Below, piece after piece: positions 9,555 through 63,168 of a stretch of 64,000 bases of DNA. The stretch's first letter is position 1; every line of letters starts with the position of its first letter. Made by a program: the position numbers and the translations under genes. The DNA is from Candidatus Magasanikiibacteriota bacterium (lineage in GTDB: Bacteria; Patescibacteriota; Patescibacteriia; Magasanikbacterales; GWA2-37-8), in the NCBI GenBank assembly GCA_041665405.1, contig JBAYIZ010000006.1:407-64406 (forward strand), read 5' to 3'. Below the pieces are notes generated by a model, which did no database searches, was not told where the DNA came from, and saw nothing but the letters and a program-made list of their open reading frames with translations.

Positions 9555-10769
9555 TTAAAAATTTATAAATTCTTTAAACCTATCTTCAAAAATAGCTTGC
9601 CGTGCCTGACGCATAAGCTCCAACATAAAATGCACATTATGGATGGTAGCCAAACGCAAACCAGTAATTTCTTGTGCTACAAATAAATGGTGTAAATAAG
9701 CGCGAGAATAATTTTTGCAAGTTGAACAAGCGCAGTCTTTACTAATTGGAGAAAAATCTTTGATAAACGCGGAGTTTTTTATATTCAAACGACGTTTCGG
9801 GTCCTCGGCAGTCGTAACAAACAACATACCGTGTCGAGCCAAACGAGTTGGTGCTACACAATCAAACATATCCGCACCACCAGCTACCACTTTGAGCAAA
9901 TCCTCTGGATCCAAACCGACACCCATAGTGTATCGTGGCTTATCTTTTGGTAATAATGGAGTAATCCAATCCAAAATATTTTTGGTAGCTTCCATGTTGT
10001 AGCCAATGCTTTCACCGCCAATTGCGATACCATCAAAATCTAAACTGGCAATATATTTAGCCGATTCTTTGCGCAGATCTTCATGATTGGCACCCTGAAT
10101 AATACCAAATAAAAATTGTTTGTATTCTTTCGGCACTGTCATCCCCGACTTGATCGGGGATCTATCATCACTAGATTCCCGCTTCTGCGGGAATGACAAA
10201 CGCTTATGTTCGTCCACACATCTTTTTGCCCAGCGATGAGTGCGATCCATAGCTTCCTTTGTATATTTATAATCTGCATCATCAGGGGTACATTCATCAA
10301 AAGCCATAATAATATCCGCACCAATCTTGTGTTGGCACAAAGTAGCGGACTCTGGTGTAAAACGATGAGTAGAGCCGTCAATATGAGATTGAAATGTCAC
10401 GCCGTCTTCATCTATTTTTACCAATTTACCTTGATCTTTGGTGTCGCTTTTTTCTTTTTGCAATCCTAATGAAAAAACCTGAAAACCACCAGAATCAGTC
10501 AAAATCGCCCGGTCCCAATTCATAAATTTGTGCAAACCACCAGATTGAGCAACCAAATCTTCACCCGGTCTCAAATGCAAATGATAGTTATTGGCCAAGA
10601 TAATTTTTGGGTCCAAAATAGCTAGGTCGTTTTGATCTAGGGTTTTAACTGTGGCCTGTGTGCCAACTGGCATAAAGACCGGAGTTTCAATATCTCCATG
10701 GTCGGTATGCAAAATACCGGCTCTGGCACCAGTTTTTTTATCTTCGTGGATTAGTTCAAAAAATGACAT
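9555..10769 (-). CDS. tgt: tRNA-guanine transglycosylase (queuine tRNA-ribosyltransferase) carrying a 20-aa in-frame repeat-derived insert
   Basis: Tgt hallmarks are present: TPVFMPVGT, LTDSGGFQV, and the zinc site CxCxxC...H (CACSTCKNYSRAYLHH). Confidence 0.93.
   Translation of the reverse strand: MSFFELIHEDKKTGARAGILHTDHGDIETPVFMPVGTQATVKTLDQNDLAILDPKIILANNYHLHLRPGEDLVAQSGGLHKFMNWDRAILTDSGGFQVFSLGLQKEKSDTKDQGKLVKIDEDGVTFQSHIDGSTHRFTPESATLCQHKIGADIIMAFDECTPDDADYKYTKEAMDRTHRWAKRCVDEHKRLSFPQKRESSDDRSPIKSGMTVPKEYKQFLFGIIQGANHEDLRKESAKYIASLDFDGIAIGGESIGYNMEATKNILDWITPLLPKDKPRYTMGVGLDPEDLLKVVAGGADMFDCVAPTRLARHGMLFVTTAEDPKRRLNIKNSAFIKDFSPISKDCACSTCKNYSRAYLHHLFVAQEITGLRLATIHNVHFMLELMRQARQAIFEDRFKEFINF
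10138..10197. repeat. double-hairpin palindromic mini-element (ATTCCCG family) inside tgt
   Basis: Sequence GTCATCCCCGActtgATCGGGGAT...ATTCCCGCttctGCGGGAATGAC is exactly 60 nt. On the minus strand it is translated as SFPQKRESSDDRSPIKSGMT. Confidence 0.8.
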
Positions 10770-11678: not shown

Positions 11679-13715
11679 ATGATAAATTTTGAACAAGAAC
11701 TCAACCCGCAACAGCTGGACGTCGTGAAAAATGGCGACGGGCCTTGTTTGGTTTTAGCTGGGGCGGGATCGGGGAAAACTCGCACTATTACTTATCGGGT
11801 TGCCTATTTGTTGGAACAAGGTGTTGGCCCAGAAAATATTTTGTTGGTAACTTTTACCAATCGAGCGGCGAATGAAATGATTGAACGGGTAAGAAATTTG
11901 ATGAGTGGGGATTCCCGTTTGCACGGGAATGACATGCCGTGGTCAGGAACATTTCACCACATTGCCAATAAAATTTTACGACACTACGCACCACATTTAG
12001 GATACAAAAATAATTTTACTGTTTTGGATTCCGACGACAGCCAGGCGTTGATAAAATTGTGTATCAAAGAATTTAAAACCACCGAAAAATTTCCTTCGGC
12101 GAAAGTTGTGGGCGCAATTATTAGTTTTGCTCGTAATTCTCAAAAAAGTATTGAAGAAGTAATTGAAGATAAATTTAATAGCTGGTGGCACCTGTCTAGA
12201 ACTATTGGCGATGTCAGCTCACGATACGAACAAAAGAAAAAAGAATCCAACGCAATGGATTTTGATGATCTACTAATTAATTTTGCATTGTTATTAAACA
12301 CCCCAGCAATTCAAGAAAAGTTTTCCAATCAATTCAAATATATTTTGGTAGATGAGTATCAAGACACCAACAAACTACAAGCGAATATTATTGATAAATT
12401 AGCCAAAATACACCGTAATTTGTTGGTAGTTGGTGATGACGCCCAAAGTATTTATTCTTTCCGTGCGGCTGATATAAAAAATATTTTAAATTTTGAAGAA
12501 AAATATTCTGATGCGAAAATTTTTCGTTTGGAAATAAATTATCGTTCTCACCAAGAAATTTTGTCTTTGGCCAATAATGTTATCGCCAACAATCGTCATC
12601 AATATCCAAAAAAATTAAAAGCAGTAAAAGAAAATGGCATAAAACCAAATTTATATCCAAAAAATGATCAATCCGACGAAGCGAGTTTTATTGTAAAAAA
12701 AATAAATGAACTGATTGAACAAGGAACTCCAGAACACAAAATCGCTGTGCTGTTTCGTGCCGCTCATCATTCTCAAATGCTCGAAATGGAATTAGCCAAA
12801 GCAGGAATCGCTTATGATTATCGTGGCGGTTTGCGATTTTTTGAACGCGCTCACATCAAAGATGTTTTGAGTTATCTCAGAATATTAAATAATTTATCTG
12901 ACACCTCTGCGTGGTTGCGTATTCTCCAACACGAAGAAGGAATCGGACCGTCGGCTGCCAATAAAATTATTTCTGCCGTGCAAAAACTAGAAAAAATTGA
13001 TGACATAAAAAATCTTGGGGAAGTTTTAGGTGGAAAAACCCAAACCGGTTTTAATAATTTCTTAAAAATTTTTAATGCTCTCTTGGAATCGTATATTCCA
13101 GAAAGCAGCCCTGGTGATTTAATCCAATCCATTATCAGTTCGAATTATAGCGACTATTTGGAAGCAGAATTCATAGATAGTGATGACCGAAAAAAGGATT
13201 TGGAACAAATGGCCACCTTTGCCACCAAACACAAAAATTTATCTGATTTTTTGGCCGAATCTAGTTTGCAAGAGTCGTTTGCCCACCCGACATCCAACCA
13301 AACACAGACAAACAACCAAAAAAGGTTGGTGCTTTCCACTATTCATCAGGCCAAAGGACTGGAGTGGGAAGCGGTTTTTATAATCAATGTAGCCAACGAC
13401 GCCTTTCCCAACAGTCGTGCTTTGGCCGAAAGTGAAGGTCTGGAAGAAGAACGCCGTTTGTTTTATGTCGCTATTACTCGTGCCAAAAAACACTTAATTT
13501 TGACTTATCCAATGTCAAATGAGGGTTGGGGCTCCTCGCTGGGCGGTCCAAGCTTGTTTTTGTCTGAAATTAGCCAAGATTTGATTGATGACCACTCATT
13601 ATTATCCTATAAAAGCACTGTTTTTGATAAAAATGAAGAAATTCAATATATTAACGAAGATGAACCAATAAATATCCAACCTGGTAGTTTTTTGCGCAGT
13701 ATTGATGACTTATAA
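11679..13715 (+). CDS. UvrD/PcrA/Rep-family ATP-dependent DNA helicase
   Basis: Walker A motif (AGAGSGKTRT), motif Ia (TFTNRAANEM), DEYQDT, motif VI (VAITRAKK). Confidence 0.92.
   Translation: MINFEQELNPQQLDVVKNGDGPCLVLAGAGSGKTRTITYRVAYLLEQGVGPENILLVTFTNRAANEMIERVRNLMSGDSRLHGNDMPWSGTFHHIANKILRHYAPHLGYKNNFTVLDSDDSQALIKLCIKEFKTTEKFPSAKVVGAIISFARNSQKSIEEVIEDKFNSWWHLSRTIGDVSSRYEQKKKESNAMDFDDLLINFALLLNTPAIQEKFSNQFKYILVDEYQDTNKLQANIIDKLAKIHRNLLVVGDDAQSIYSFRAADIKNILNFEEKYSDAKIFRLEINYRSHQEILSLANNVIANNRHQYPKKLKAVKENGIKPNLYPKNDQSDEASFIVKKINELIEQGTPEHKIAVLFRAAHHSQMLEMELAKAGIAYDYRGGLRFFERAHIKDVLSYLRILNNLSDTSAWLRILQHEEGIGPSAANKIISAVQKLEKIDDIKNLGEVLGGKTQTGFNNFLKIFNALLESYIPESSPGDLIQSIISSNYSDYLEAEFIDSDDRKKDLEQMATFATKHKNLSDFLAESSLQESFAHPTSNQTQTNNQKRLVLSTIHQAKGLEWEAVFIINVANDAFPNSRALAESEGLEEERRLFYVAITRAKKHLILTYPMSNEGWGSSLGGPSLFLSEISQDLIDDHSLLSYKSTVFDKNEEIQYINEDEPINIQPGSFLRSIDDL
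11911..11933. repeat. ATTCCCG palindromic mini-element inside the helicase gene
   Basis: ATTCCCGTttgcACGGGAATGAC, translated as (G)DSRLHGND between helicase motifs Ia and Ib. Confidence 0.7.
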
Positions 13716-25146: not shown

Positions 25147-25154
25147 AAATTCCG

Positions 25155-25240
25155 CAAAGGGTAACTTTTTCGCTTTTTTTGCCCGCGAGGGCAAAAGGAT
25201 GAGCCTCGGCTCATAACCCGCTCAAAAGTAACCCTTTGCT
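25155..25240 (+). ncRNA. candidate structured RNA / terminator-embedded repeat, copy 1
   Basis: Outer stem is GCAAAGGGT.../...ACCCTTTGC. It encloses the conserved core TTTTTCGCTTTTTTTGCCCGCGAGGGCAAAAGGATGAGCCTCGGCTCATAACCCGCTCAAAAG. Related copies are at 38645 and 48340. Confidence 0.5.
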
Positions 25241-27394: not shown

Positions 27395-27419
27395 TTATCA
27401 AACAATGATAATTACTAAA

Positions 27420-27567
27420 TTTGTATACACTAGTCTATACAAAAGTGGATAAGTGTGTGCACAACTCCACTCTTGTGTGTATAACTTTTAACTGTTCGCC
27501 TTCTTAGCCACCCTTTTCTTGGCTAACCACAAAAGAAACTCTGTTTGTATAGACTAGTGTATACAAA
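27420..27567. repeat. 148-bp unit bounded by perfect 24-nt inverted repeats (MITE-like element or paired operators)
   Basis: TTTGTATACACTAGTCTATACAAA (27420-27443) has its exact reverse complement TTTGTATAGACTAGTGTATACAAA at 27544-27567. Each copy is itself quasi-palindromic around ACTAGT. Confidence 0.6.
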
Positions 27568-27570
27568 TGG

Positions 27571-36447: not shown

Positions 36448-37842
36448 TTAGATATTATTGATATATAAACGCTGTCTTATTAATTCTAGTTCTTGTTTTA
36501 GTTTTAAATCATTATCTATTTCTTTGGTAATTTTTTCGTTGGCATGCATCGCTGTGGTGTGATCGCGTCCGCCCAGCTCATCGCCAATGGAAGGGAAAGA
36601 CATTTTAAGATCATTACGCAAAATATACATAATAATCTGGCGAGGATAAGAGAGCTTCTTTTCTCGGCTTTTACCACAAACATTTTCGGTGGAAACATTG
36701 AAAAAGGTGCAAACAGTCTCTATGGTCTGTTGTGATGTGACTGAACGTCTAGCCGAAGCAGAATCAAAACTAGAAAGAATTGATTTTACTGATTCGGCTG
36801 TCGGGGCCATATTTTTTAATTGATGATAAGCAATAATTTTATTTAGGGCGCCTTCAAGCTCACGAATGTTGCTCTGAACAATAGTAGCAACTGTATTTAG
36901 GGTTTTGTCGTCCAAAACAAAATTCTTTTCTTGGCACTTTTTGCCCAAAATAGCGACACGTGTTTCAAAATCAGGGGCAGAAACATCCACAATCATTCCC
37001 CACTCGAAGCGAGATTTGAGGCGATCCTCAAGGGCAGGGATGGCTTTTGGTGGGCGGTCAGAAGTTAAAATTACCTGCTTGTTTGCCTGGTGGAGCTCGT
37101 TAAAAGTATGAAAAAACGATTCTTGGCTGGCATCTTTGCCAGCGATGAACTGAATATCATCAATTAACAAAGCGTCGATAGTACGATAGCGGTTTTGGAA
37201 GTCTCTCGCTCCACCACTACGCAAAGAAGTAATAAAATCGTTGGTAAATTTCTCAGCACTAACATACAAGATATTGGTTTGAGGGTTTTTTTTCAACAAT
37301 TCATTGCCAACCGCCTGTAAAAGATGGGTTTTCCCCAAACCTACACCACCGTAGATAAACAGTGGATTGTAGGCCTCACCAGGACGGTCTGCCACTGCCT
37401 TGGCGGCGGTGAAAGCCAATTCGGAGCCTTTGCCAACCACAAAACTATCAAAATTGTATTTTGGGTTAATGGTAAATCCATGAGAAGCGACAGATTGGTG
37501 ACTAGTTTGTTGAGAGTATGAAGGTGTTTTTTCGTTTTCATGAGATACCGACGGGGAAGGAGGGGTGTTTATTGGTTGTTCCACAACATTTTTGATATTT
37601 TCGATCTTGTATTCCATCCTTCTAATAGGAAGGGCGGTGACCCTCTCTAAAGATTGGATGATTTGGTGGTGGTGTTTTTTTTCAATCCACGCCTGATTAA
37701 AGGTGTTTGGGACGCAGACAATAACATGGCCTTCTTGAAAACTAACAATACCAGTATTTTTGAACCAGGTGTTAAAATTCGCTTTGGAAATGGTTAATTC
37801 TAATTCAGATAAAACAGCCTGCCAAATTTCATTATTAGTCAT
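36448..37842 (-). CDS. dnaA: chromosomal replication initiator DnaA
   Basis: AAA+ Walker A GGVGLGKTHL, a sensor region, and the C-terminal DnaA signature (GGRDHTTAMHA). Confidence 0.96.
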   Translation of the reverse strand: MTNNEIWQAVLSELELTISKANFNTWFKNTGIVSFQEGHVIVCVPNTFNQAWIEKKHHHQIIQSLERVTALPIRRMEYKIENIKNVVEQPINTPPSPSVSHENEKTPSYSQQTSHQSVASHGFTINPKYNFDSFVVGKGSELAFTAAKAVADRPGEAYNPLFIYGGVGLGKTHLLQAVGNELLKKNPQTNILYVSAEKFTNDFITSLRSGGARDFQNRYRTIDALLIDDIQFIAGKDASQESFFHTFNELHQANKQVILTSDRPPKAIPALEDRLKSRFEWGMIVDVSAPDFETRVAILGKKCQEKNFVLDDKTLNTVATIVQSNIRELEGALNKIIAYHQLKNMAPTAESVKSILSSFDSASARRSVTSQQTIETVCTFFNVSTENVCGKSREKKLSYPRQIIMYILRNDLKMSFPSIGDELGGRDHTTAMHANEKITKEIDNDLKLKQELELIRQRLYINNI

Positions 37843-38017
37843 AGATTGATAGTTTTATAAAACTTTTATGTTATTTTAGCACAGAAACACATCTATTAAA
37901 ACGTCGGAAATTAGCTAAAAGTGCAAAATATGTGGATAAACTGGGGATACTGTGGATTGTTGACTAAAAGCCGTTTATATGGTAATATATTCAACATAAT
38001 ACATTAAATAAAAAGGT
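37843..38017. other. oriC candidate, part 2 / dnaA promoter region with DnaA boxes
   Basis: Perfect TGTGGATAA at 37931-37939 and TGTGGATTG at 37951-37959. Confidence 0.6.
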
Positions 38018-38197
38018 ATGGCAACTAAACGAACTTATCAACCAAGTAAAAAACATCGTGCAAAAGCACACGGATTCATGGAAAGAATGTCCACAAAGAA
38101 TGGACGGACAGTACTTTCTAGACGTCGTGCCAAGGGGCGCAAGAAGCTAACAGTGTCAGATGAAAAATCTGGAAAATTGTTAAGAAAAGCCAAATAA
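38018..38197 (+). CDS. rpmH: 50S ribosomal protein L34 with a C-terminal extension
   Basis: My own translation: [59 protein letters not shown] (59 aa). It is below the track cutoff. A hairpin terminator follows at 38202-38227. Confidence 0.9.
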
Positions 38198-38245
38198 TCT
38201 TAAACCCCCGATTGAATCGGGGTTTTTATTTGGTATAATATTGTT

Positions 38246-38641
38246 ATGTATAGAAAAGAAAACCATTTGACCAAGGTGCGAGATTTCAATCTCGTTTTAA
38301 AACAAGGATATTGGATAAATGATCTGTTTTTTAGTTTAAAAGTATTAGACTTAGCCAAAAAAGAGGCTTATTTTCCACCCAAAGAAGATAAGGATAAGTT
38401 CAAAAAACAGCTTAAGTTAGCGGTGAATGTTGGGTTAAAGGTGTCTAAAAGTGCTGTTGTGCGCAATCGGGCAAAAAGGCAGGTTGTGGAGGTGTTGAGG
38501 GCGATGATGGCCAAAGATGAAATATTGGAAGGGTATTATTTGTTTTTTGTGGCGAAGCCGAATATCAAGGAGAAAAGTTTTGCTGAGATAAGCGATGAAG
38601 TGAAACTATTATTGCAAAAGGCAAACGTGCTAAAGAGGTAA
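38246..38641 (+). CDS. rnpA: ribonuclease P protein component
   Basis: Position after rpmH. The RNR motif context is present (VVRNRAKRQVVEVLR). Confidence 0.85.
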   Translation: MYRKENHLTKVRDFNLVLKQGYWINDLFFSLKVLDLAKKEAYFPPKEDKDKFKKQLKLAVNVGLKVSKSAVVRNRAKRQVVEVLRAMMAKDEILEGYYLFFVAKPNIKEKSFAEISDEVKLLLQKANVLKR

Positions 38642-38644
38642 TTT

Positions 38645-38739
38645 AAAAAACTTTTATTTTATTTCGCTTTTTTTGCCCGCGAGGGCAAAAGGATGAAGCC
38701 GCGGCTTCATAACCCGCTCAATTAAAATAAAAGTTTTTT
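38645..38739 (+). ncRNA. candidate structured RNA / terminator-embedded repeat, copy 2
   Basis: A 17-bp outer stem (AAAAAACTTTTATTTTA/TAAAATAAAAGTTTTTT) encloses the core TTTCGCTTTTTTTGCCCGCGAGGGCAAAAGGATGAAGCCGCGGCTTCATAACCCGCTCAA. Confidence 0.5.
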
Positions 38740-38744
38740 AAATT

Positions 38745-39020
38745 ATGCCTAAAAACCTTCTTTATTACATTAAACAAGCAACTATATTTTTGGGAATGCC
38801 GATTGTTTTTTTGATTTGGGTTTATCAAAAAACATTTTCGCCGGATCATGGGCCGTTGAAAAGATTTTTTCCTTATGGGTATTGTCGGTTTTATCCTAGT
38901 TGTAGTGAATATGGAAAACAATCTATAAAAAAACACGGCCTGTTTGTTGGAACAATCAAGGCCGGGTGGAGATTGCTAAGATGTAATCCATGGAATAAAG
39001 GGGGGATGGATTTGCCGTGA
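38745..39020 (+). CDS. yidD: membrane protein insertion efficiency factor YidD
   Basis: YQKTFSP...CRFYPSCSEYGKQSIKKHG...G...RLLRCNPW is the canonical YidD pattern. Confidence 0.9.
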   Translation: MPKNLLYYIKQATIFLGMPIVFLIWVYQKTFSPDHGPLKRFFPYGYCRFYPSCSEYGKQSIKKHGLFVGTIKAGWRLLRCNPWNKGGMDLP

Positions 39021-39022
39021 TT

Positions 39023-39069
39023 GTCATTCCCGTGAAAGCTTGTCCCCACGAAAGTGGGGACGGGAATCC
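39023..39069. repeat. nested-hairpin palindromic mini-element (ATTCCCG family), intergenic
   Basis: GTCATTCCCGtgaaagcttGTCCCCACgaaaGTGGGGACGGGAATCC lies between the convergent stops of yidD and the DUF167 gene. Confidence 0.75.
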
Positions 39070-39073
39070 GTTC

Positions 39074-39301
39074 CTAATTTTCAATCTCAATCATTTTATT
39101 TTTGCTCGTGTTGCCGGACACGATTTTTATTTTGCTTTTTGAAATATTAAAATAATCGGCGAGTAATTTTATTAAGGCGTCGTTCGCTTTTCCATCGACG
39201 GGTGGAGCGGTGAGTTTTATTTTTAAAGTGCCATCGGACATTTTTCCGATGACTTCATTTTTTGAAGAGCGGGGGAGGACGCGGATTTTTAATTTTGGCA
39301 T
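39074..39301 (-). CDS. DUF167/YggU-family protein
   Basis: 75 aa. ...LKIKLTAPPVDGKANDALIKLLADYF...I..G..S..K is typical of UPF0235. Confidence 0.8.
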   Translation of the reverse strand: MPKLKIRVLPRSSKNEVIGKMSDGTLKIKLTAPPVDGKANDALIKLLADYFNISKSKIKIVSGNTSKNKMIEIEN

Positions 39302-44707: not shown

Positions 44708-44731
44708 GATTCCCGCTTTCGCGGGAATGAC
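44708..44731. repeat. ATTCCCG palindromic mini-element, intergenic
   Basis: GATTCCCGCtttcGCGGGAATGAC, about 20 nt from the hppA stop. Confidence 0.75.
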
Positions 44732-44752
44732 AACACACGAAGAATGGTGTTT

Positions 44753-48241: not shown

Positions 48242-48312
48242 GGTACCGTTGCCAAGCAGTAAGGCAGAGCTCTGCAAAAGCTCTATGCGTGGGTGCAATT
48301 CCCACCGGTACC
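48242..48312 (+). tRNA. tRNA-Cys (anticodon GCA)
   Basis: Acceptor stem GGTACCG/CGGTACC, anticodon stem GAGCT/AGCTC with loop CU-GCA-AA, T-arm GTGGG-TGCAATT-CCCAC. A TTGACT-16-TATTAT promoter lies upstream. Confidence 0.85.
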
Positions 48313-48339
48313 TCGAAATAGCAGTAGTGCTGTAGAACA

Positions 48340-48437
48340 AACATCCCAGACAATGACTTTTTCGCTTTTTTCGACCGCGAGGTCGAAAGGATGAGCCTCG
48401 GCTCATAACCCGCTCAAAAGTAATTGTCTGGGATGTT
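48340..48437 (+). ncRNA. candidate structured RNA / terminator-embedded repeat, copy 3
   Basis: A 15-bp perfect outer stem (AACATCCCAGACAAT/ATTGTCTGGGATGTT) is followed by a T7 run. It encloses the core TTTTTCGCTTTTTTCGACCGCGAGGTCGAAAGGATGAGCCTCGGCTCATAACCCGCTCAAAAG. Confidence 0.55.
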
Positions 48438-48482: not shown

Positions 48483-48576
48483 ATTTTTGTGTCCCAAACG
48501 ACCGACGGTTCGCCGTTCGGTCACAACGACCACTTGCACCGCTCATCGGTGGTGGTCTCGAAAAGGAGAGAGAGCC

Positions 48577-48798
48577 ATGCGTGTGCTTCCCTCGATCCTG
48601 AACCAGAGCCGGAGACGGAGCGACAATTCCGCCGATTGCGGGCAGGTCGCGAGCTCCGAGGCCGACTTCATCCACAGGCAACTGCTCGAGCATGGCTTCT
48701 GCTCGGACATGAAGGAGGGCGCCGTCGGCACCGCCAACATGGTCGGCATCGTCTGTTCGACCGCGGCCGGCCGCGGAGCAGTAGTCCTCCTGGTGTAG
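48577..48798 (+). CDS. 73-aa protein of unknown function encoded in G+C-rich islet 4
   Basis: AAGGAG sits 8 nt before the ATG. By my codon-by-codon read, G/C at codon position 3 is very high in this frame only. Sequence: MRVLPSILNQSRRRSDNSADCGQVASSEADFIHRQLLEHGFCSDMKEGAVGTANMVGIVCSTAAGRGAVVLLV. Confidence 0.55.
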   Translation: MRVLPSILNQSRRRSDNSADCGQVASSEADFIHRQLLEHGFCSDMKEGAVGTANMVGIVCSTAAGRGAVVLLV

Positions 48799-48827
48799 GG
48801 CTCAGCTTCGTACGAGACAACCAGTGC

Positions 48828-48881
48828 GGCCGGACCGGGAGCTCCTTCGGGGGTTTCTGGTCCGGCCGTCGTTTCCTTTTT
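48828..48881 (+). terminator. GC-rich hairpin terminator after the islet 4 ORF
   Basis: GGCCGGACC...GGTCCGGCC (9 bp), followed by gtcgTTTCCTTTTTATT. Confidence 0.55.
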
Positions 48882-48962: not shown

Positions 48963-51638
48963 ATGTCAAAATTTGTAATTATTGATGGGAACGCTATTGT
49001 GCATCGTGCTTATCACGCTTTGCCTCCGATGAACACCAAAGACGGGGTGATGGTGAATGCGGTGTATGGATTTACTTCCATGTTGCTCAAGGTTTGGAAA
49101 GATTTGAGGCCCACGCATTTGTGTGTGAGTTTTGATGTGGCCGGTGGGACTTTTCGTCATGAGAAATTTGAGCAATACAAAGGTACGCGCGTGAAGGCGG
49201 ATCAGGAATTGTATGATCAGATGCCTTTGGTGCATGAAGTGGTGGAGGCGTTTAGTATTCCGATTTATGAAATGAAAGGGTATGAGGCGGATGATGTGAT
49301 TGGAACTGTGGTGCGTAGGATTGAAAACGAAGTGGACGAGGTGTATATTGTGACGGGTGATATGGACACCCTGCAATTGGTGGATGAAAAAATAAAAGTT
49401 TATACTTTGCGCAAAGGCATGAGCGATATTGTGATATATAATCCAGAAGAAGTAAAAAAGCGTTTTGGTTTTGGACCGGAATTGGTAATAGATTACAAAG
49501 CTTTGCGCGGAGATCCTTCGGATAATATTCCGGGGGTGCCTGGAATTGGTGAAAAAACAGCGACGGATTTGATTTTGAAATTTGGTGATTTGAAAGAAAT
49601 ATATAAAGTGGTAAACGCAGAAAAAGATAAAAAGAAAAGTGATTTATTTAGTTCGTCGGTTTTGAATAAATTATCGCAGGGTGAAAAAAGTGCACAGATG
49701 AGTTATGAATTGGCGACGATAGATTGTGCCGTACCGGGTTTGAATTTTAGTTTGGAAAATTGTGCGATGAGTGAATTTGATCATGATAAAATTTTGAAAT
49801 TATTTCAGAAATTTGAGTTTGTGTCTTTGATGAAACGGATTCCTGGGTTTGATAAGTATGATGTGGTGGAACCAGAAAAAACTACGACAGTAAAAAGCAA
49901 GAAAATGGCTGAATTAAATTTTAAAGAACTAGGGAATAAAAGCGAGGCAAAAGAATTGGTGGAGAAAATAAAAAAGAACGGGCAGTTTGCCTGTCGGGCG
50001 GCGATGAGTGGGAAAGATGTTTTGACCAGTGACTTTTTTGGGTTGGTGGTGATTGTGGAAAGTGAAGGGTATTTTGTTAAAAATAATTTGGTGGAAGAAT
50101 TTTTGCCGATTTTTGACGATGAAAAAATTGAATTGGTGGGGCATGATTTGAAACAATTGGTGAAGGTTTTATTATTGCAAAAACAGGAAATAAAAAACTC
50201 TTTGTTTGATGTAATGGTGGGGTCGTATCTGCTCAACCCAGGCAGTCGTGCTCATGATAGTGCCAGTGTGGTGTTGAAAATATTGGATAAAGAATTAAAG
50301 GTGGGTAGTGGGCAAGAAAGTTTATTCGGGGTAGATGCAAAAGCGTTGGCGGCGGAGTTATATTTAATATTACAAACTGTTGAAAAAATTAAAACTGAAT
50401 TGAACAAGACAGATAATTTGGGTTTGTTACAAAAAATAGAAATGCCGTTACTTTTGGTGTTGGCACAGATGGAATTAAATGGGATTGCGGTGGATTTGGA
50501 GATGCTCCAAAAATTATCGGTAGAAGTAAATGATAGTATTAAAAAAGTTTCCAAAAAGATTTTTGATTTAGCCGGAATGGAATTTAATATTTCTTCACCG
50601 TTGCAATTGAGGGAAGTATTATTTGAAAAACTGGATATTCCTGTCGAGGGAATAAAAAAAGGCAAGACCGGTTTATCTACTTCGGCTGAACAATTGGAAA
50701 AAATGCACGGGCTACATCCGATTATTAAAGAAATTGAAATTTATCGTGAGTTGGCTAAATTGCAAAATACTTATGTGGACGTATTACCGACTTTGATTAA
50801 TAAAAAAACAGGACGAATTCACACCACCTTTAATCAGGCGGTGACGGCCACCGGCAGGCTGTCTAGTTCTGAACCGAATTTACAGAACATTCCAATTCGT
50901 ACCGAGATCGGTCGTGAAGTGCGCAAGGCGTTTGTGTCTGAAAAGGGTAACGTGTTGATTAGTGCAGATTACTCACAGATTGAATTGCGAATTGTGGCTT
51001 CGATGGCGCAAGACAAACGGATGATGGAAATTTTTGAAAAAGATTTAGATATTCATAGAGCCACAGCGGCGGCGATCAATGGAGTTCCGCTAGAAGAAGT
51101 CACCAAAGAAATGCGTCGCGCGGCCAAAGAAATTAATTTTGGTGTGTTGTATGGTATGGGAACATACGGTCTAAGTTGGCGCGCGGAAATTTCTCATGCT
51201 CAGGCGAAAGAATTTATCCAAAAATATTTTGAACAATTTAGCGGGGTAAAGCAGTATATAGATCAGACATTGGAATTCACTAAGACAGAAGGATATTGTG
51301 AAACGCTATTTGGGCGCCGAAGATATTTGCCAGAATTGAGATCACAAAATTTTCAGATGCGCAGTGCGGCCGAACGCATGGCGATTAACCACCCTATCCA
51401 AGGCACAGCTGCCGATCTGATCAAGATGGCGATGATTGAAGTGGGAAAAAAATTGAAAGAATATCCAGAGGTAAGAATGCTTTTGCAAGTACACGACGAA
51501 TTGGTGTTAGAAGTGAAAAAAGGTGAAGAAGAAAAGATCGGCAAGATTCTCAAAGAGACGATGGAAAATGTGGTGAAGCTGAGGGTGCCGGTAAAGGTAG
51601 AGGTGAACATCGGACATAGTTGGGGGGAGATGAAATAA
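48963..51638 (+). CDS. polA: DNA polymerase I
   Basis: 5'-nuclease domain, central domain, and family A polymerase motifs (DYSQIELR, RRAAKEINFGVLYG, QVHDELV). Confidence 0.95.
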   Translation: MSKFVIIDGNAIVHRAYHALPPMNTKDGVMVNAVYGFTSMLLKVWKDLRPTHLCVSFDVAGGTFRHEKFEQYKGTRVKADQELYDQMPLVHEVVEAFSIPIYEMKGYEADDVIGTVVRRIENEVDEVYIVTGDMDTLQLVDEKIKVYTLRKGMSDIVIYNPEEVKKRFGFGPELVIDYKALRGDPSDNIPGVPGIGEKTATDLILKFGDLKEIYKVVNAEKDKKKSDLFSSSVLNKLSQGEKSAQMSYELATIDCAVPGLNFSLENCAMSEFDHDKILKLFQKFEFVSLMKRIPGFDKYDVVEPEKTTTVKSKKMAELNFKELGNKSEAKELVEKIKKNGQFACRAAMSGKDVLTSDFFGLVVIVESEGYFVKNNLVEEFLPIFDDEKIELVGHDLKQLVKVLLLQKQEIKNSLFDVMVGSYLLNPGSRAHDSASVVLKILDKELKVGSGQESLFGVDAKALAAELYLILQTVEKIKTELNKTDNLGLLQKIEMPLLLVLAQMELNGIAVDLEMLQKLSVEVNDSIKKVSKKIFDLAGMEFNISSPLQLREVLFEKLDIPVEGIKKGKTGLSTSAEQLEKMHGLHPIIKEIEIYRELAKLQNTYVDVLPTLINKKTGRIHTTFNQAVTATGRLSSSEPNLQNIPIRTEIGREVRKAFVSEKGNVLISADYSQIELRIVASMAQDKRMMEIFEKDLDIHRATAAAINGVPLEEVTKEMRRAAKEINFGVLYGMGTYGLSWRAEISHAQAKEFIQKYFEQFSGVKQYIDQTLEFTKTEGYCETLFGRRRYLPELRSQNFQMRSAAERMAINHPIQGTAADLIKMAMIEVGKKLKEYPEVRMLLQVHDELVLEVKKGEEEKIGKILKETMENVVKLRVPVKVEVNIGHSWGEMK

Positions 51639-51683
51639 AATTAAAAAAATCGACCACACAAAGTAGTCGGTTTTTTTGTTTGT

Positions 51684-53282
51684 TTATTTTTTTATACTTC
51701 TCAACATTATTCTTTTAAAATCTTGCGCAATTTCATAACGCAAGCCTTTTCTATTTAAGTTAACCTTGTTTCTAAGAGTTTCTAAGTATGTTTTATGTTC
51801 TGAACTTGTTAAGTATTCTCGCATGATTTCATCCCTTAATTTTGCCCAATCCTCAGAGTTTTTAAGCCATTGTTTTTCTAGAGGGACACCTAATGTTTTG
51901 TACATTTTTGCTGGATCCATTACGCTATGCATAGTATCATGTTTTCTAAAAAGTTTTGGATTCTCTCGGGCGTTTTTTTCTTTTTCAAACATGTTACTAT
52001 ACATACCAAAATCGATAGTTCCAACGATAGGTGTCCAAATATTTATACGGTAGTTGGTTTGAGGATTTTTTTTCATAAATGTAAGCATGGTCTTCTTTAT
52101 TTCATCTTTTGTATATCGAAAATGTTCGGGTAACCCTAAGATTAGCAAGGTTCTCACCATGAGAAATTTTTTTGCAGAATTAATAAACTCTGTAGCCACT
52201 TCAAGACTATCGCCTTTTGCTAAATCTTTTCTATTGCCGATAACATCTTCTACACCAACGGCAATTTCAATACAGCCAGCTTCAGCCATTTCTTTAAATT
52301 TTCTTAAACCCTCAAACTGCTTGACGCTCATAAAAGCAACCCACCCCATCTTATTTTTATGTTGCTGATTGAAGTGTTTCATAAAATTTATAAAATCTTC
52401 AAAGTGTTTCGGGTTGGCATTTAGTAAGGCATCACGTACAAAAACAAAATCCTTACCTTGTTTATAAAGTTTTTTTATTTCATTTTTGGCTGTGTCAAGA
52501 CAAGACACATATCCACCATAAAAAGAATCACTAGTGCAGAAAGTGCATTTATGAATACATCCGGCGCTAGTAGCTGTCGAACCGGCATTTTTGAAGTGTT
52601 TGTCTAATTCTAAAAAAGGCATTTTATTTATTTGAGAGCCATCGGTAGAAGCCGCTACAGGTATCAATATCTCAAGAGCATTGTTTTCTGTTAGCCGAGG
52701 AAAATTTTTACCAGTTTTTTTAGTGTTTTCAACAATACATAAATTTGTGTTTGTATCCTTTGTTGTATACGCAATTGAGCCTATTTTTTTCAAAGGAACC
52801 CCTAACGATAGAGCCAACATTGGCAATTCTCCTTGTCCGGTACAACAAATATCTATCCCAGTAATTTCTGGGTGTTGTAAAATCCATTTATAATCAAGCG
52901 CAAAATGTTCAGCCCCTCCGATTACTGTTTTTTGAGGATACTTGTTTTTTATTTTACGACACAACTCAAAGGATTCATTTATACTAGTAGACTGACTACT
53001 AATGCCAATAATTTCGGATTGTTGAATAAGATTTTCCATTGCGGACGTTTTTTGGTCTTGAAGATATGCTATGTCCACCGATATGCCAAATTTTTTTAAG
53101 TATCCAGCTATTCTTTTGATGCCGAGATTTTCTAATCTTAAATGATATTCGTCGGCTTCATATTTGGATTCGGTTATGTTGCCGTCAATAAGTAGAACCC
53201 TTTTTCTGGGTAGTTTTTTGTTGAAAGCCATTTTTTGCAGAGCATTCAATGAAATAATTTGTGTTGTTGTCGAAGTTTCCAT
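51684..53282 (-). CDS. B12-binding-domain radical SAM enzyme (class B rSAM)
   Basis: N-terminal Rossmann-like B12-binding region, then CIHKCTFC (CX3CX2C). 532 aa. Confidence 0.75.
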   Translation of the reverse strand: METSTTTQIISLNALQKMAFNKKLPRKRVLLIDGNITESKYEADEYHLRLENLGIKRIAGYLKKFGISVDIAYLQDQKTSAMENLIQQSEIIGISSQSTSINESFELCRKIKNKYPQKTVIGGAEHFALDYKWILQHPEITGIDICCTGQGELPMLALSLGVPLKKIGSIAYTTKDTNTNLCIVENTKKTGKNFPRLTENNALEILIPVAASTDGSQINKMPFLELDKHFKNAGSTATSAGCIHKCTFCTSDSFYGGYVSCLDTAKNEIKKLYKQGKDFVFVRDALLNANPKHFEDFINFMKHFNQQHKNKMGWVAFMSVKQFEGLRKFKEMAEAGCIEIAVGVEDVIGNRKDLAKGDSLEVATEFINSAKKFLMVRTLLILGLPEHFRYTKDEIKKTMLTFMKKNPQTNYRINIWTPIVGTIDFGMYSNMFEKEKNARENPKLFRKHDTMHSVMDPAKMYKTLGVPLEKQWLKNSEDWAKLRDEIMREYLTSSEHKTYLETLRNKVNLNRKGLRYEIAQDFKRIMLRSIKK

Positions 53283-56220: not shown

Positions 56221-56226
56221 TTAAAA

Positions 56227-56261
56227 CAAAAAACCGATTGCAATATGCAGTCGGTTTTTTT
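56227..56261 (+). terminator. conserved terminator shared by the TrmB-like modules (copy 1)
   Basis: AAAAAACCGATTGCaataTGCAGTCGGTTTTTTT. Near-identical copies are at 61129 and 63042. Confidence 0.8.
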
Positions 56262-56269
56262 AGTTTATT

Positions 56270-57910
56270 TTACTCAATAAAAAGATTTTCCGTAGAATAA
56301 TTATTTTTTATTAATTTATCATTTATTAAAACTTTTATAATTTCATCAACCACTGAATTAAAATCATCTGGAATTGTATCAAAGAATTCTATCTTTTTTA
56401 ATGATTCGGTTAATTCGCGCTCAGGTATCCCAACATGAGATGAGGCAATATTTATTACCTCTTTTTCTTGTTTTTTCCATATCGCGACGGATTGATTCCA
56501 CACCTTCTTAATTTTTTCAATCTCTTTGGTTTTTTGTTGTAGTAATTTATTGTTTACAATCAATACATCATATAGGATAGGATAATCGTTTGTGGTTTTT
56601 AAAATATTTATATTTGAAAGTTCAAGCGCTTTTTCAAGCCATGGCTCCCAAATAATTCCAGCTTCAATATTACCCGCGATAATTCCAGCTCCAATTTCAG
56701 AGCATTGCATATCTTTAATTTTTACATCTTTAGAGGTCATCCCTTCTTTTTGGAGAATATATGAGAGAAAAAATTCCGCCACCGATCCTTTTTCGAGTCC
56801 TATGGTTTTACCTTTTAATTCAATTACGGATTTTATATTTGACTGTGCAACTAACGCATCGCCACCGACGGAGCGATTCAATACCTTTACTATTCTAAGA
56901 TCTGTTATTTTTGAGTGTAATTCGATGGCTTTATCTAGGGTAACATTTATTGCGTCTAGCTTTCCTTGCTCCCACAGCTCAACTTTTTTCTTGTTATCTT
57001 CAAAATTGATTTGTTCCACATCAAGCGACTCGTCGATAAACAGACCGCTATCTTTTGCATAGTAAAGGGGGGTGTTTCCAGACCAAATATATAATCCCAT
57101 TTTGAAAACATCAGTATCAGTAACAATCCCTTCTTCCAAGCTCGCCTTGATTGATTCTGAACGAATAATGTAACTGATGAACTTTTTTAGTTTTATAAAA
57201 TCTTCATGGAATCTGATTTCAGGTTTTCGTGGTCGTTTGATATTTACTTTTACTACCTGTTTGACAGTTCCTGGATTTAGTCCTAAGACAATAATTCTAT
57301 CCGCTAAGTATATTGCTTCATCAATGTCATGGGTGACTAAAATCATTGTTTTTTGTTCTTCTTCCCATAGTCTTGCTAAAAATTCTTGCATTTGAGATCT
57401 CGTTTGTACATCAAGAGCGCCAAAAGGTTCGTCAAATGCAATTAGGTCAGTCTGTTGTGCTATTGCTCTGGCAATAGCGATTCTTTGTTGCATGCCTCCT
57501 GAAAGCTTGTTGGGGAAATAATCTTTGACCTTGTAAAGGCCAACTCGTTTAAGTAATTTGTTAGTTTCAGTACGTACTTCAGTCTCAGACATATTTTTAC
57601 CGTAAAATCCAATGGCAATATTTTCGAAAACATTCAACCAAGGAAAATTAGAGTATTGCTGAGAAACTAATGCAATTCTATTATTTTCTAAATATTTGGA
57701 GCTGTCTAAACCATTGATTTTTATATTTCCTTCGAATACAGTGTCCAAACCTGTTACGCATTTTAAAATAGTGCTTTTACCTGAGCCGCTTGGGCCAACT
57801 ATACACACTATCTCCCCCTTTTTTATATCAAAAGAGATATCATTTATTGCGATAAAAGATTTATTTTCGCGATCATAATAATGTTTAGTTAGTTTGTGGA
57901 CTTCAATCAT
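56270..57910 (-). CDS. ABC transporter ATPase (NitT/TauT-type) fused to a C-terminal periplasmic-binding-protein-like domain
   Basis: An internal ATG at 57910 gives MIEVHKLTKHY... Walker A GPSGSGKST, signature LSGGMQQR, Walker B LIAFDEP. About 300 further aa resemble an NMT1/SsuA-like fold. Confidence 0.8.
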   Translation of the reverse strand: MIEVHKLTKHYYDRENKSFIAINDISFDIKKGEIVCIVGPSGSGKSTILKCVTGLDTVFEGNIKINGLDSSKYLENNRIALVSQQYSNFPWLNVFENIAIGFYGKNMSETEVRTETNKLLKRVGLYKVKDYFPNKLSGGMQQRIAIARAIAQQTDLIAFDEPFGALDVQTRSQMQEFLARLWEEEQKTMILVTHDIDEAIYLADRIIVLGLNPGTVKQVVKVNIKRPRKPEIRFHEDFIKLKKFISYIIRSESIKASLEEGIVTDTDVFKMGLYIWSGNTPLYYAKDSGLFIDESLDVEQINFEDNKKKVELWEQGKLDAINVTLDKAIELHSKITDLRIVKVLNRSVGGDALVAQSNIKSVIELKGKTIGLEKGSVAEFFLSYILQKEGMTSKDVKIKDMQCSEIGAGIIAGNIEAGIIWEPWLEKALELSNINILKTTNDYPILYDVLIVNNKLLQQKTKEIEKIKKVWNQSVAIWKKQEKEVINIASSHVGIPERELTESLKKIEFFDTIPDDFNSVVDEIIKVLINDKLIKNNYSTENLFIE

Positions 57911-61118: not shown

Positions 61119-61128
61119 AATTTAAAAA

Positions 61129-61162
61129 CAAAAAACCGATTGCAGATTGCAGTCGGTTTTTT
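61129..61162 (+). terminator. conserved TrmB-module terminator (copy 2)
   Basis: AAAAAACCGATTGCagatTGCAGTCGGTTTTTTG. Confidence 0.8.
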
Positions 61163-61308
61163 GATAACTTCTTGAGCTCAACAAGATGTTGGAGTGAATG
61201 AGCGGTCACTACCAGCCGCGTGACTTTTTGTTTTACCGGTAGTCACAAACCGGATGATCCCAGACCCCTCATCAGCGGACCATTGAATTGTCCTGAAACT
61301 TTGCACCT

Positions 61309-63031: not shown

Positions 63032-63041
63032 CACTAAGAAC

Positions 63042-63075
63042 AAAAAACCGATTGCGATATGCAGTCGGTTTTTTA
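63042..63075 (+). terminator. conserved TrmB-module terminator (copy 3)
   Basis: AAAAAACCGATTGCgataTGCAGTCGGTTTTTTA. Confidence 0.8.
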
Positions 63076-63168
63076 ATTACTTCTTGAACCAAAATGATTT
63101 AGTTCGAAAAGTAGCTGCGCGTCTTTTTGACCGGGACGCGCAACCGGGTGAGAGGGTGGAACCGGACG

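Follow-up and report, generated by a model that had tools for sequence, protein, structure and literature searches.

We studied the spacer between rnpA and yidD in a window of 64,000 nucleotides (the whole stretch of DNA analysed) from a Candidatus Magasanikiibacteriota contig; positions without a locus label (an L number) refer to this window. A preliminary description, made from the letters of the sequence, held that a structured element fills the 103-nt gap between the two genes (38642-38744), and this was borne out. It gave the element outer arms of 17 nt, which are exact at 38645-38661 / 38723-38739, but the real stem is longer: an inverted-repeat search found arms of 26 nt each, 38639-38664 / 38720-38745, that are 96% complementary. 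This outer stem, P1, reaches into both genes. The rnpA TAA (38639-38641) forms its first three bases and the A of the yidD ATG its last; the helix begins 0 nt past the first base of the stop codon and stops 2 nt short of the final base of the start codon. The segment 38639-38745 folds as a three-way junction, with P1 carrying two inner hairpins, P2 (UUUUGCCC-GCGA-GGGCAAAA) and P3 (AUGAAGC-CGCG-GCUUCAU). The features of the locus are as follows.

38246..38641, + strand: rnpA (RNase P protein); open reading frame with Pfam PF00825 Ribonuclease_P, E = 1e-15
38639..38663, + strand: P1 5' arm; A/T-rich and locus-specific; found as an inverted repeat and in folds, with compensatory differences among orthologs
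38664..38667, + strand: UCGC, the junction-proximal 5' side of P1; tandem U.C/C.U mismatches, then a G-C and C-G clamp
38668..38690, + strand: junction U-run and P2 (UUUUGCCC / GGGCAAAA), with the GCGA (GNRA-type) loop at 38679-38682
38691..38715, + strand: GG, P3 (38693-38710; AUGAAGC-CGCG-GCUUCAU), AA bulge and CCC
38716..38719, + strand: GCUC, the junction-proximal 3' side of P1; part of the AACCCGCUC block, from invariant columns and pair counts
38720..38745, + strand: P1 3' arm, with a U6 run at 38734-38739; its terminal base is the A of the yidD ATG
38745..39020, + strand: yidD (membrane protein insertion efficiency factor); open reading frame with Pfam PF01809 YidD, E = 1e-23

The minimum free energy of the RNA fold is -40.4 kcal/mol (z = -6.9), a stability equalled by 0 of 200 shuffles, and the three-way fold is also the centroid structure within a 271-nt context. 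The opposite strand is nearly as stable (-39.9 kcal/mol).

The preliminary description had called this element copy 2, and the label is correct: the window holds exactly three copies. A covariance model (R1) was built from 57 copies and recovered at least 72 in the loci examined. Used to search the window with filters off, it matched 25158-25235, 38652-38731 and 48350-48427, all on the + strand, at 85-100 bits, while the next-best match scored only 12 bits. Every copy is intergenic, at a density of about one per 20 kb. The other two copies are these.

25154..25239, + strand: copy 1, in the rpsG-fusA spacer (S7 and EF-G confirmed by Pfam); 99.6 bits
48336..48447, + strand: copy 3, 22 nt after a tRNA gene (48242-48313); P1 with 26-nt arms, followed by T7; 98.7 bits

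Copy 3 has a terminator-like shape, and the equivalent site after tRNA-Cys is also filled in L030, L053 and L078. A little beyond it lies a 390-nt segment (48490-48880) of 60-70% G+C, against about 37% for the genome; L053 and L078 lack it in their orthologous spacers between tRNA-Cys and polA. This segment is preceded by TTGACT-17-TAAAAT and encloses a 73-aa open reading frame (48577-48798) that, in contrast to the host genes, has a strong Shine-Dalgarno motif, AAGGAGAG, in front of it. The segment had no Pfam or Rfam match, and from its composition and signals it could be foreign DNA or a structured RNA. Two more families of repeated hairpins occur in the window: AAAAAACCGATTGC..GCAGTCGGTTTTTT, of terminator-like look, and GATTCCCGC-NNNN-GCGGGAATGACA. 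Their sites are 51637-51689, 56221-56273, 61123-61175 and 63035-63087, and 10174-10199, 11910-11935, 44708-44733 and 39020-39076, the last being a related nested hairpin that directly follows the yidD stop. Another inverted repeat, ATTTGTATACACTAGTCTATACAAA, has perfectly matched arms of 25 nt (27419-27443 / 27544-27568) separated by 100 nt; it lies about 80 nt downstream of fusA and is outside the three-armed family.

Family members elsewhere were sought with a loose pattern in one genome per species and the matches were extracted, so that the range and copy numbers given here are lower bounds. Among the matches listed, at least about 60 are true members, nearly all in Candidatus Magasanikbacteria assemblies and a few in other Patescibacteria. 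Several third-party assemblies named 'uncultured Gammaproteobacteria' carry the element (CAYZHG (L070), CAZXEV, CAZHYJ, CAYXJO and CAYNEQ; the loci include L019, L036, L048 and L055). For CAYZHG this label looks wrong, since its RnpA is 87% identical to that of labelled Magasanikbacteria. At one locus two copies stand in tandem (L031:2231-2309 and 2355-2432), 46 nt apart, in the same orientation and with separate outer stems. An association of the repeat with phages was rejected, as all five pattern matches in viral contigs fail the covariance model. At gathering thresholds, Rfam 15 matched only two tRNAs in the whole window and assigned the element to no family; at E <= 10 the only matches were generic long hairpins (microRNA precursors at 20-25 bits, against thresholds of 70-90). 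A literature search found no paper describing the three-armed repeat. We therefore regard it as well supported that the segment 38639-38745 is a member of a dispersed structured repeat family of Candidatus Magasanikbacteria (Patescibacteria) that had not been described before.

The fold of the family is real, conserved and strongly covarying, in all three helices. In an alignment of 72 copies, 89.8% of the cells in paired columns can pair, against 38-53% when the partners are slid by 1-3 columns; changes on both sides occur in 28 of 32 pairs, and the covariation score was reached by 0 of 500 shuffles. What is conserved is the hairpin tip, a module about 56 nt long, below which P1 has a different sequence at each locus. 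From 5' to 3' the module consists of a UC/CU tandem mismatch, a GC clamp, a U-run, P2 with its GNRA loop, P3 with a stable tetraloop and an AA bulge, and AACCCGCUC. The junction strands are UCGCUUU, GG and AACCCGCUC, and the AACCCGCUC block is invariant in the 57-copy alignment. About 25 near-invariant nucleotides cluster in this way at a junction between freely covarying helices. The clamp is nearly constant (columns 15-79 are GC in 70 of the 72 copies and AU in two; columns 16-78 are CG in 71), and in the few copies where the U.C positions are altered they have become Watson-Crick pairs.

The helices vary far more in sequence. All 12 P1 pairs change on both sides across the family; only the 6-10 bp of P1 beside the core are similar among copies, the distal arms being locus-specific, and P1 usually has a purine-rich mismatch 6-8 bp from the core. 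In the inner part of P2, 97.8% of the cells pair and each of the 5 pairs varies on both sides; P2 keeps a constant stem length, and its loop is usually GCGA, with GUGA in a few copies. P3 is 98.4% paired, with changes on both sides in 7 of 8 pairs, and is closed across the family by CUCG, CUUG, UUCG or UCG. A divergent subtype (type II) has CCU/AGG in place of UUU/AAA at the base of P2.

Several other readings of these columns were tried and dropped. A pseudoknot between UCGC and the GCGA loop, although pairable in 97% of copies, would need four loop bases to pair across an 8-bp stem without a linker, and UCGC is better explained as the strand opposite GCUC. A mini-ORF (AUG...UAA) in P3 fails because the P3 length of 16-18 nt shifts the frame and an A-U pair covaries to G-C. 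A CsrA-like site, or a Shine-Dalgarno sequence with an AUG, in AAAGGAUG was rejected since the bases are paired and covary (CCU/AGG in type II). A DNA-uptake sequence was rejected as well: about one copy per 20 kb is too sparse, and the covariation would be left unexplained.

The signs of which strand folds point in both directions. The as-given (+) strand is favoured by the GNRA and YNMG/UUCG loops, and in predicted energies the core alone is slightly more stable on it in 47 of the 72 copies. The complement is favoured by the P1 mismatches (41 A.C versus 3 G.U), by the UC/CU mismatch, which becomes tandem G.A on the opposite strand, and by the predicted energy of the whole element, more stable as the complement in 50 of the 72. 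The A.C versus G.U argument is weakened because the conserved mismatch site, columns 4-7, accounts for about two thirds of the A.C cases and shows A.A and G.A just as often. G.U wobbles in P3 were discarded as strand evidence, since columns 49-59 and 50-58, first read as pairs, belong to loops of the UUCG type.

Most family copies begin within about 40 nt of a stop codon. Those in co-directional contexts number about 27 sense and 14 antisense to the host genes, nearer to even when orthologs are counted once. Antisense copies lie inside operons such as groES-groEL (L113) and rpsB-tsf (L068), and before and after a pnp-like gene of 743 aa (L095, L097). At five orthologous sites the element has opposite orientations in different genomes; examples are L089:3230-3309 versus L097:1643-1721, L097:4048-4126 versus L095:6979-7058, and L113:5209-5286 versus L016:4463-4540. 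Between L089 and L097 the 12-bp proximal stem and the core are exact reverse complements, mismatches included, and these alignments show that the element flips in place through the inverted repeat of its own stem, with the proximal stem and core as a unit. Antisense copies stay at the consensus: of 54 core positions just 1 differs between L095 and L097, two genomes whose four-fold degenerate sites are only 0.55 identical. Stem variants are shared within genomes more often than between them (P2, 22% versus 7%; P3, 53% versus 20%; permutation p <= 0.0005), a pattern that points to copying or gene conversion, as in selfish repeats.

Two other accounts of orientation were considered. Orientation does not follow the direction of replication: the cumulative GC-skew minimum lies at about 36-38 kb, so that copy 1 is on the opposite side from copies 2 and 3 and all are +, and in L113 + and - copies occur within 8 kb while the genes are all +. 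(dnaA, on the - strand, and rpmH, on the + strand, diverge at 36448-38018 in the region of this minimum, and the replication origin is probably at about 37.85-38.0 kb.) Nor does the core look like a promoter acting as an invertible switch, since neither strand has a convincing -35/-10 pair by eye or in the promoter scan.

Because the antisense and inverted copies remain at the consensus, much of the conservation of the core cannot come from a strand-specific role in host mRNA; being antisense in groES-groEL and rpsB-tsf and flipped at orthologous sites, the conserved core is not a dedicated coupling or insulating device. Either orientation, inversion in place and the sharing of variants within genomes are the behaviour of a REP-like dispersed repeat, and taken as a whole the family therefore behaves as one, not as a dedicated regulator. 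These same observations feed the main competitor of the interpretation developed below, in which the element would be a dispersed palindromic repeat like REP elements or miniature inverted-repeat transposable elements (MITEs), selfish or neutral and without a role for either rnpA or yidD. Such a repeat would be tolerated between the two genes only because its hairpin leaves their stop and start adjacent, and its conserved junction would be a requirement for spreading. That dozens of copies are confined to one lineage, among the matches listed, fits this account too. We nevertheless think it rather unlikely, mainly for reasons that come from the rnpA-yidD site itself.

Metagenome contigs were scanned with a YidD alignment to find orthologs of the site, and the spacers were then analysed. 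They fall into five groups.

L121, L125-L128, L039, L040, L070, L088: element present in the same orientation; spacer about 102 nt, stop paired with start
L129, L145: type II element; spacer 85 nt, with a short P1 and without stop/start pairing
L120: a different nested-hairpin element, recurring in L027; spacer 184 nt, the outer stem likewise starting from the stop codon
L123, L124: no element; spacer 73-83 nt, A/T-rich, with apparent remnants of P1 arms
Roughly 35 loci with a distant YidD (49-70% identical): spacer -11 to +29 nt

A comparison of this spacer in relatives with and without the element had been proposed in the preliminary description, and the spacing does change with the element. 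The same geometry is found in the type-I sequences of the window itself, L039, L040, L070/L127/L128, L088/L121, L125 and L126. These make up about nine distinct type-I sequences, all of which have the element in one orientation. In every one, position 1 of the rnpA stop codon is paired to position 1 of the yidD start, despite compensatory changes in the stem, and among family sites this exact pairing was found at rnpA-yidD alone. Among six type-I orthologs identity is 0.90 in the core and 0.80 in the P1 arms, while the flanking genes reach 0.52 at their four-fold degenerate sites; all core changes fall in P2 or P3, the junction strands are unchanged, and the changes in P1 are compensatory. The alignments thus argue for fixation and purifying selection at this site. 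Selection in place on core and junction strands counts against a purely selfish repeat, as do the uniform orientation of the type-I orthologs, whereas other sites flip, and a P2 variant that is stable here across species. The outer stems count against it as well, being locus-specific, whereas MITEs have conserved ends.

The distant relatives, with spacers of -11 to +29 nt, indicate that tight coupling of rnpA and yidD is the ancestral state. The element would therefore be a lineage-specific insertion, and one that can be lost (L123, L124) or replaced (L120). Both the element and its geometry are therefore dispensable: the near relatives L123 and L124 do without the element, L120 has a different one, and stop and start are not paired in L129 and L145. 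Loss and replacement at this very site are what a selfish repeat would be expected to undergo, and the replacing element adds a further point for that account: it belongs to an unrelated family with the same nested-hairpin architecture. This family B is a repeat of about 150 nt (L120:2801-2991, L027:4960-5180); its outer stems are specific to each locus and enclose conserved sequences, CTCTCACTAT..GCTCTGRCCGTG..CACGGYCAGCCACGC..

We then turned to signals for expression at the locus. According to the preliminary description, any Shine-Dalgarno sequence of yidD would lie in or against the stem. The argument does not apply, as yidD has no such motif, and an SD-like motif precedes only 3 of the 52 genes of the window. 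What P1 would hide in the predicted fold is the yidD start codon and the entire leader upstream of it. The same description treated rpmH-rnpA-yidD as a conserved unit, from which rpmH has to be removed: it has its own terminator-like site (38206-38222, followed by a T-run), and rnpA has its own promoter-like site, TTGAAT-16-TATAAT (38212-38239). The latter ends 7 nt before the ATG, which suggests that the rnpA message is leaderless. Several genes of the window, rnpA included, have a TATAAT-like box that stops about 7 nt short of the ATG, which suggests that leaderless or short-leader mRNAs are widespread in this genome. Upstream of yidD the promoter scan gave no site above 9/12, and hence no convincing promoter of its own.

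The possibility that the element insulates the two genes was weighed against these signals. Here it would be a signal for RNA 3'-end formation, processing or stability: P1 and its U-run would act as a partial intrinsic terminator, or the stem as a nuclease site (for example, for RNase III), with the effect that yidD is uncoupled from rnpA or that the rnpA message is shielded from 3' exonucleases. E. coli REP elements are mRNA stabilisers placed after stop codons, and the position of our element right after stop codons recalls them. Many members also resemble bidirectional intrinsic terminators, with an A-tract, a G+C-rich distal stem and a U-tract, at convergent-gene or post-tRNA sites. The copies between convergent genes, or after tRNA-Cys or tRNA-Leu, have a P1 of 20-38 bp with an A-tract and a U-tract, the bidirectional-terminator shape, and other members, copy 3 and the convergent-gene copies among them, have a G+C-rich stem followed by a U-tract. 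They differ from intrinsic terminators in that a 56-nt branched module replaces the loop.

Copy 2 differs further, having an A/U stem and lying inside an operon. It does carry U6 (38734-38739) at the 3' end of its stem, but the 13 bp beside this run include only one G-C pair and the U6 itself is paired to an A6 on the upstream side. Copy 2 is not called in the terminator scan, though the loop limit of the scan would exclude such large-loop stems anyway. In orthologs the U-runs are just 4-7 bases long and lie within A/T palindromes. Also against insulation, yidD has no convincing promoter of its own, and the exact, conserved pairing of stop with start is something that a plain terminator does not need. 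We consider a 3'-end signal at this site improbable. The preliminary description had inferred that the element could couple or insulate expression. Coupling is favoured by the conserved orientation, the stop/start pairing and the 0.90 identity of the core, while insulation finds little support because the stem beside U6 is nearly all A-U; the inference is in this sense partly supported, coupling being the more plausible of the two and neither demonstrated.

A third alternative gives the junction an activity of its own, independent of the neighbouring genes, as a new class of self-cleaving ribozyme or a lineage-specific protein-binding site, which here would cut or mark the rnpA-yidD transcript. 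Small ribozyme classes are recognised by a near-invariant junction with covarying helices and by many copies. The repeat shows this pattern: its near-invariant nucleotides at the junction, the conserved GNRA loop on a P2 of constant length, the conserved purine-rich mismatch in P1, and many copies per genome without a match to a known family. Its likeness to the hammerhead and the purine riboswitch extends to size (about 55-80 nt), a closing stem with two hairpins, a conserved junction and a loop placed for tertiary contact. There is no sequence or model match to either: the hammerhead core strands CUGANGA and GAAA are absent, and no ribozyme family was found in Rfam at E <= 10. Nor does the element lie in 5' leaders or keep an orientation tied to genes, as a riboswitch or other cis-regulatory leader would; copies follow stop codons and stand antisense in operons. 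Equal conservation of the antisense copies is unexpected for a strand-specific RNA, unless both strands are transcribed. We rate this alternative lowest of those considered, as very unlikely.

Comparison with other repeats places the family as a kind of dispersed intergenic palindromic repeat with an unusual conserved branched tip. The REP/BIME elements of enterobacteria are likewise dispersed in many copies, intergenic, found after stop codons, in operons and between convergent genes, in either orientation, and form hairpins in mRNA, which can attenuate transcription or stabilise the message upstream of them. Unlike our element, whose outer stem differs at each locus, they are simple palindromes, about 35 nt long, that share a conserved stem sequence and are linked to RAYT-type (TnpA-REP) transposases. 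No shared palindromic stem of about 35 nt was found, the outer stems being unrelated between loci, and the conserved part is instead the 56-nt three-way junction at the tip, with freely covarying stems. Conserved terminal inverted repeats of the MITE kind were not seen either: the distal arms are locus-specific and no direct repeat flanks copy 2. The stem ends (AAAAAAC / GTTTTTT) misfit the integron attC pattern (RYYYAAC / GTTRRRY), and the neighbours are housekeeping operons, with the element in both orientations.

Three further systems resemble particular aspects of the element. The MIRU repeats of mycobacteria, reportedly described by Supply and colleagues in 1997, are intercistronic and inside operons, keep the flanking stop and start linked and are thought to preserve coupling; they are tandem direct repeats with small ORFs overlapping their neighbours, whereas here a helix joins stop and start and there is no ORF. 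Small inversions in hairpin loops of chloroplast non-coding DNA, which Kelchner and Wendel are said to have described in 1996, likewise flip a segment between inverted repeats in related lineages, as in L089 versus L097. The flipped chloroplast loops are short and unconserved, while the flipped segment of the element is a conserved structured module. In MS2 coat-replicase coupling and in the shunt of the CaMV 35S leader, long-range helices are opened or shunted by ribosomes, and the mechanism proposed below is similar in that a ribosome ending at the foot of a helix would expose, or reach, a start beyond the structure. MS2 uses an operator that contains a Shine-Dalgarno sequence, shunting in CaMV is eukaryotic and neither is a dispersed repeat; in our case the mechanism is proposed from sequence.

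The explanation that we prefer, tentatively and with somewhat less than even confidence, is that the element is a dispersed repeat whose P1, at this one site, keeps the translation of yidD coupled to that of rnpA. We infer this coupling from geometry and conservation. The form is that of a coupling hairpin, with the downstream start held in a helix and the opposite strand on the path of ribosomes that end the upstream gene: in all type-I orthologs the 5' arm opens with the three bases of the stop codon and the 3' arm closes with the A of the AUG. In this model the element would have inserted into an ancestrally overlapping rnpA/yidD junction in the ancestor of one Magasanikbacteria subclade and would have been kept there since by purifying selection. 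rnpA, the element and yidD would be co-transcribed as a single mRNA from the promoter-like site just upstream of rnpA. P1 would juxtapose the rnpA UAA and the yidD AUG at the base of the helix and bury the AUG with its leader. A ribosome finishing rnpA would melt the lower 12-15 bp of P1, expose the neighbouring AUG and re-initiate there. As the organism barely uses Shine-Dalgarno sequences, yidD would be translated mainly when a ribosome terminating on rnpA opens P1. Because that opening frees the AUG, the ancestral translational coupling would outlast an insertion of 103 nt.

The conserved junction module is not specific to this task. It may cap intergenic and terminator hairpins, either recognised by a protein or docking on itself, or it may be needed for the spread of the repeat itself. 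A bolder combination joins two claims: that P1 supports an analogue of shunting, in which a ribosome ending at the rnpA UAA would re-initiate at the yidD AUG held across a 100-nt folded insert, and that the junction is a Patescibacteria-specific class of catalytic or protein-binding RNA, which recombination between the two arms of its own stem could invert in place. That both hold together seems to us a long shot.

For annotation, the family calls for caution. In-place inversions and the sharing of variants within genomes indicate that it is still dynamic, and a copy should not be read as a dedicated regulator of the genes that flank it. Patescibacteria have tiny genomes with little non-coding DNA, yet dozens of copies are kept in the Magasanikbacteria lineage. 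The 56-nt module, conserved far above neutral sites, is a candidate for studies of RNA motifs, ribozymes and RNA-protein recognition in an uncultured phylum. If the shunting analogue were true, structured repeats would be tolerable inside the operons of an organism that makes little use of Shine-Dalgarno sequences. The rnpA-yidD copy may serve as a model of how a 100-nt insertion between ancestrally overlapping genes can be accommodated by a stem that restores the closeness of stop and start, and so offers a testable model of translational coupling without a Shine-Dalgarno sequence.
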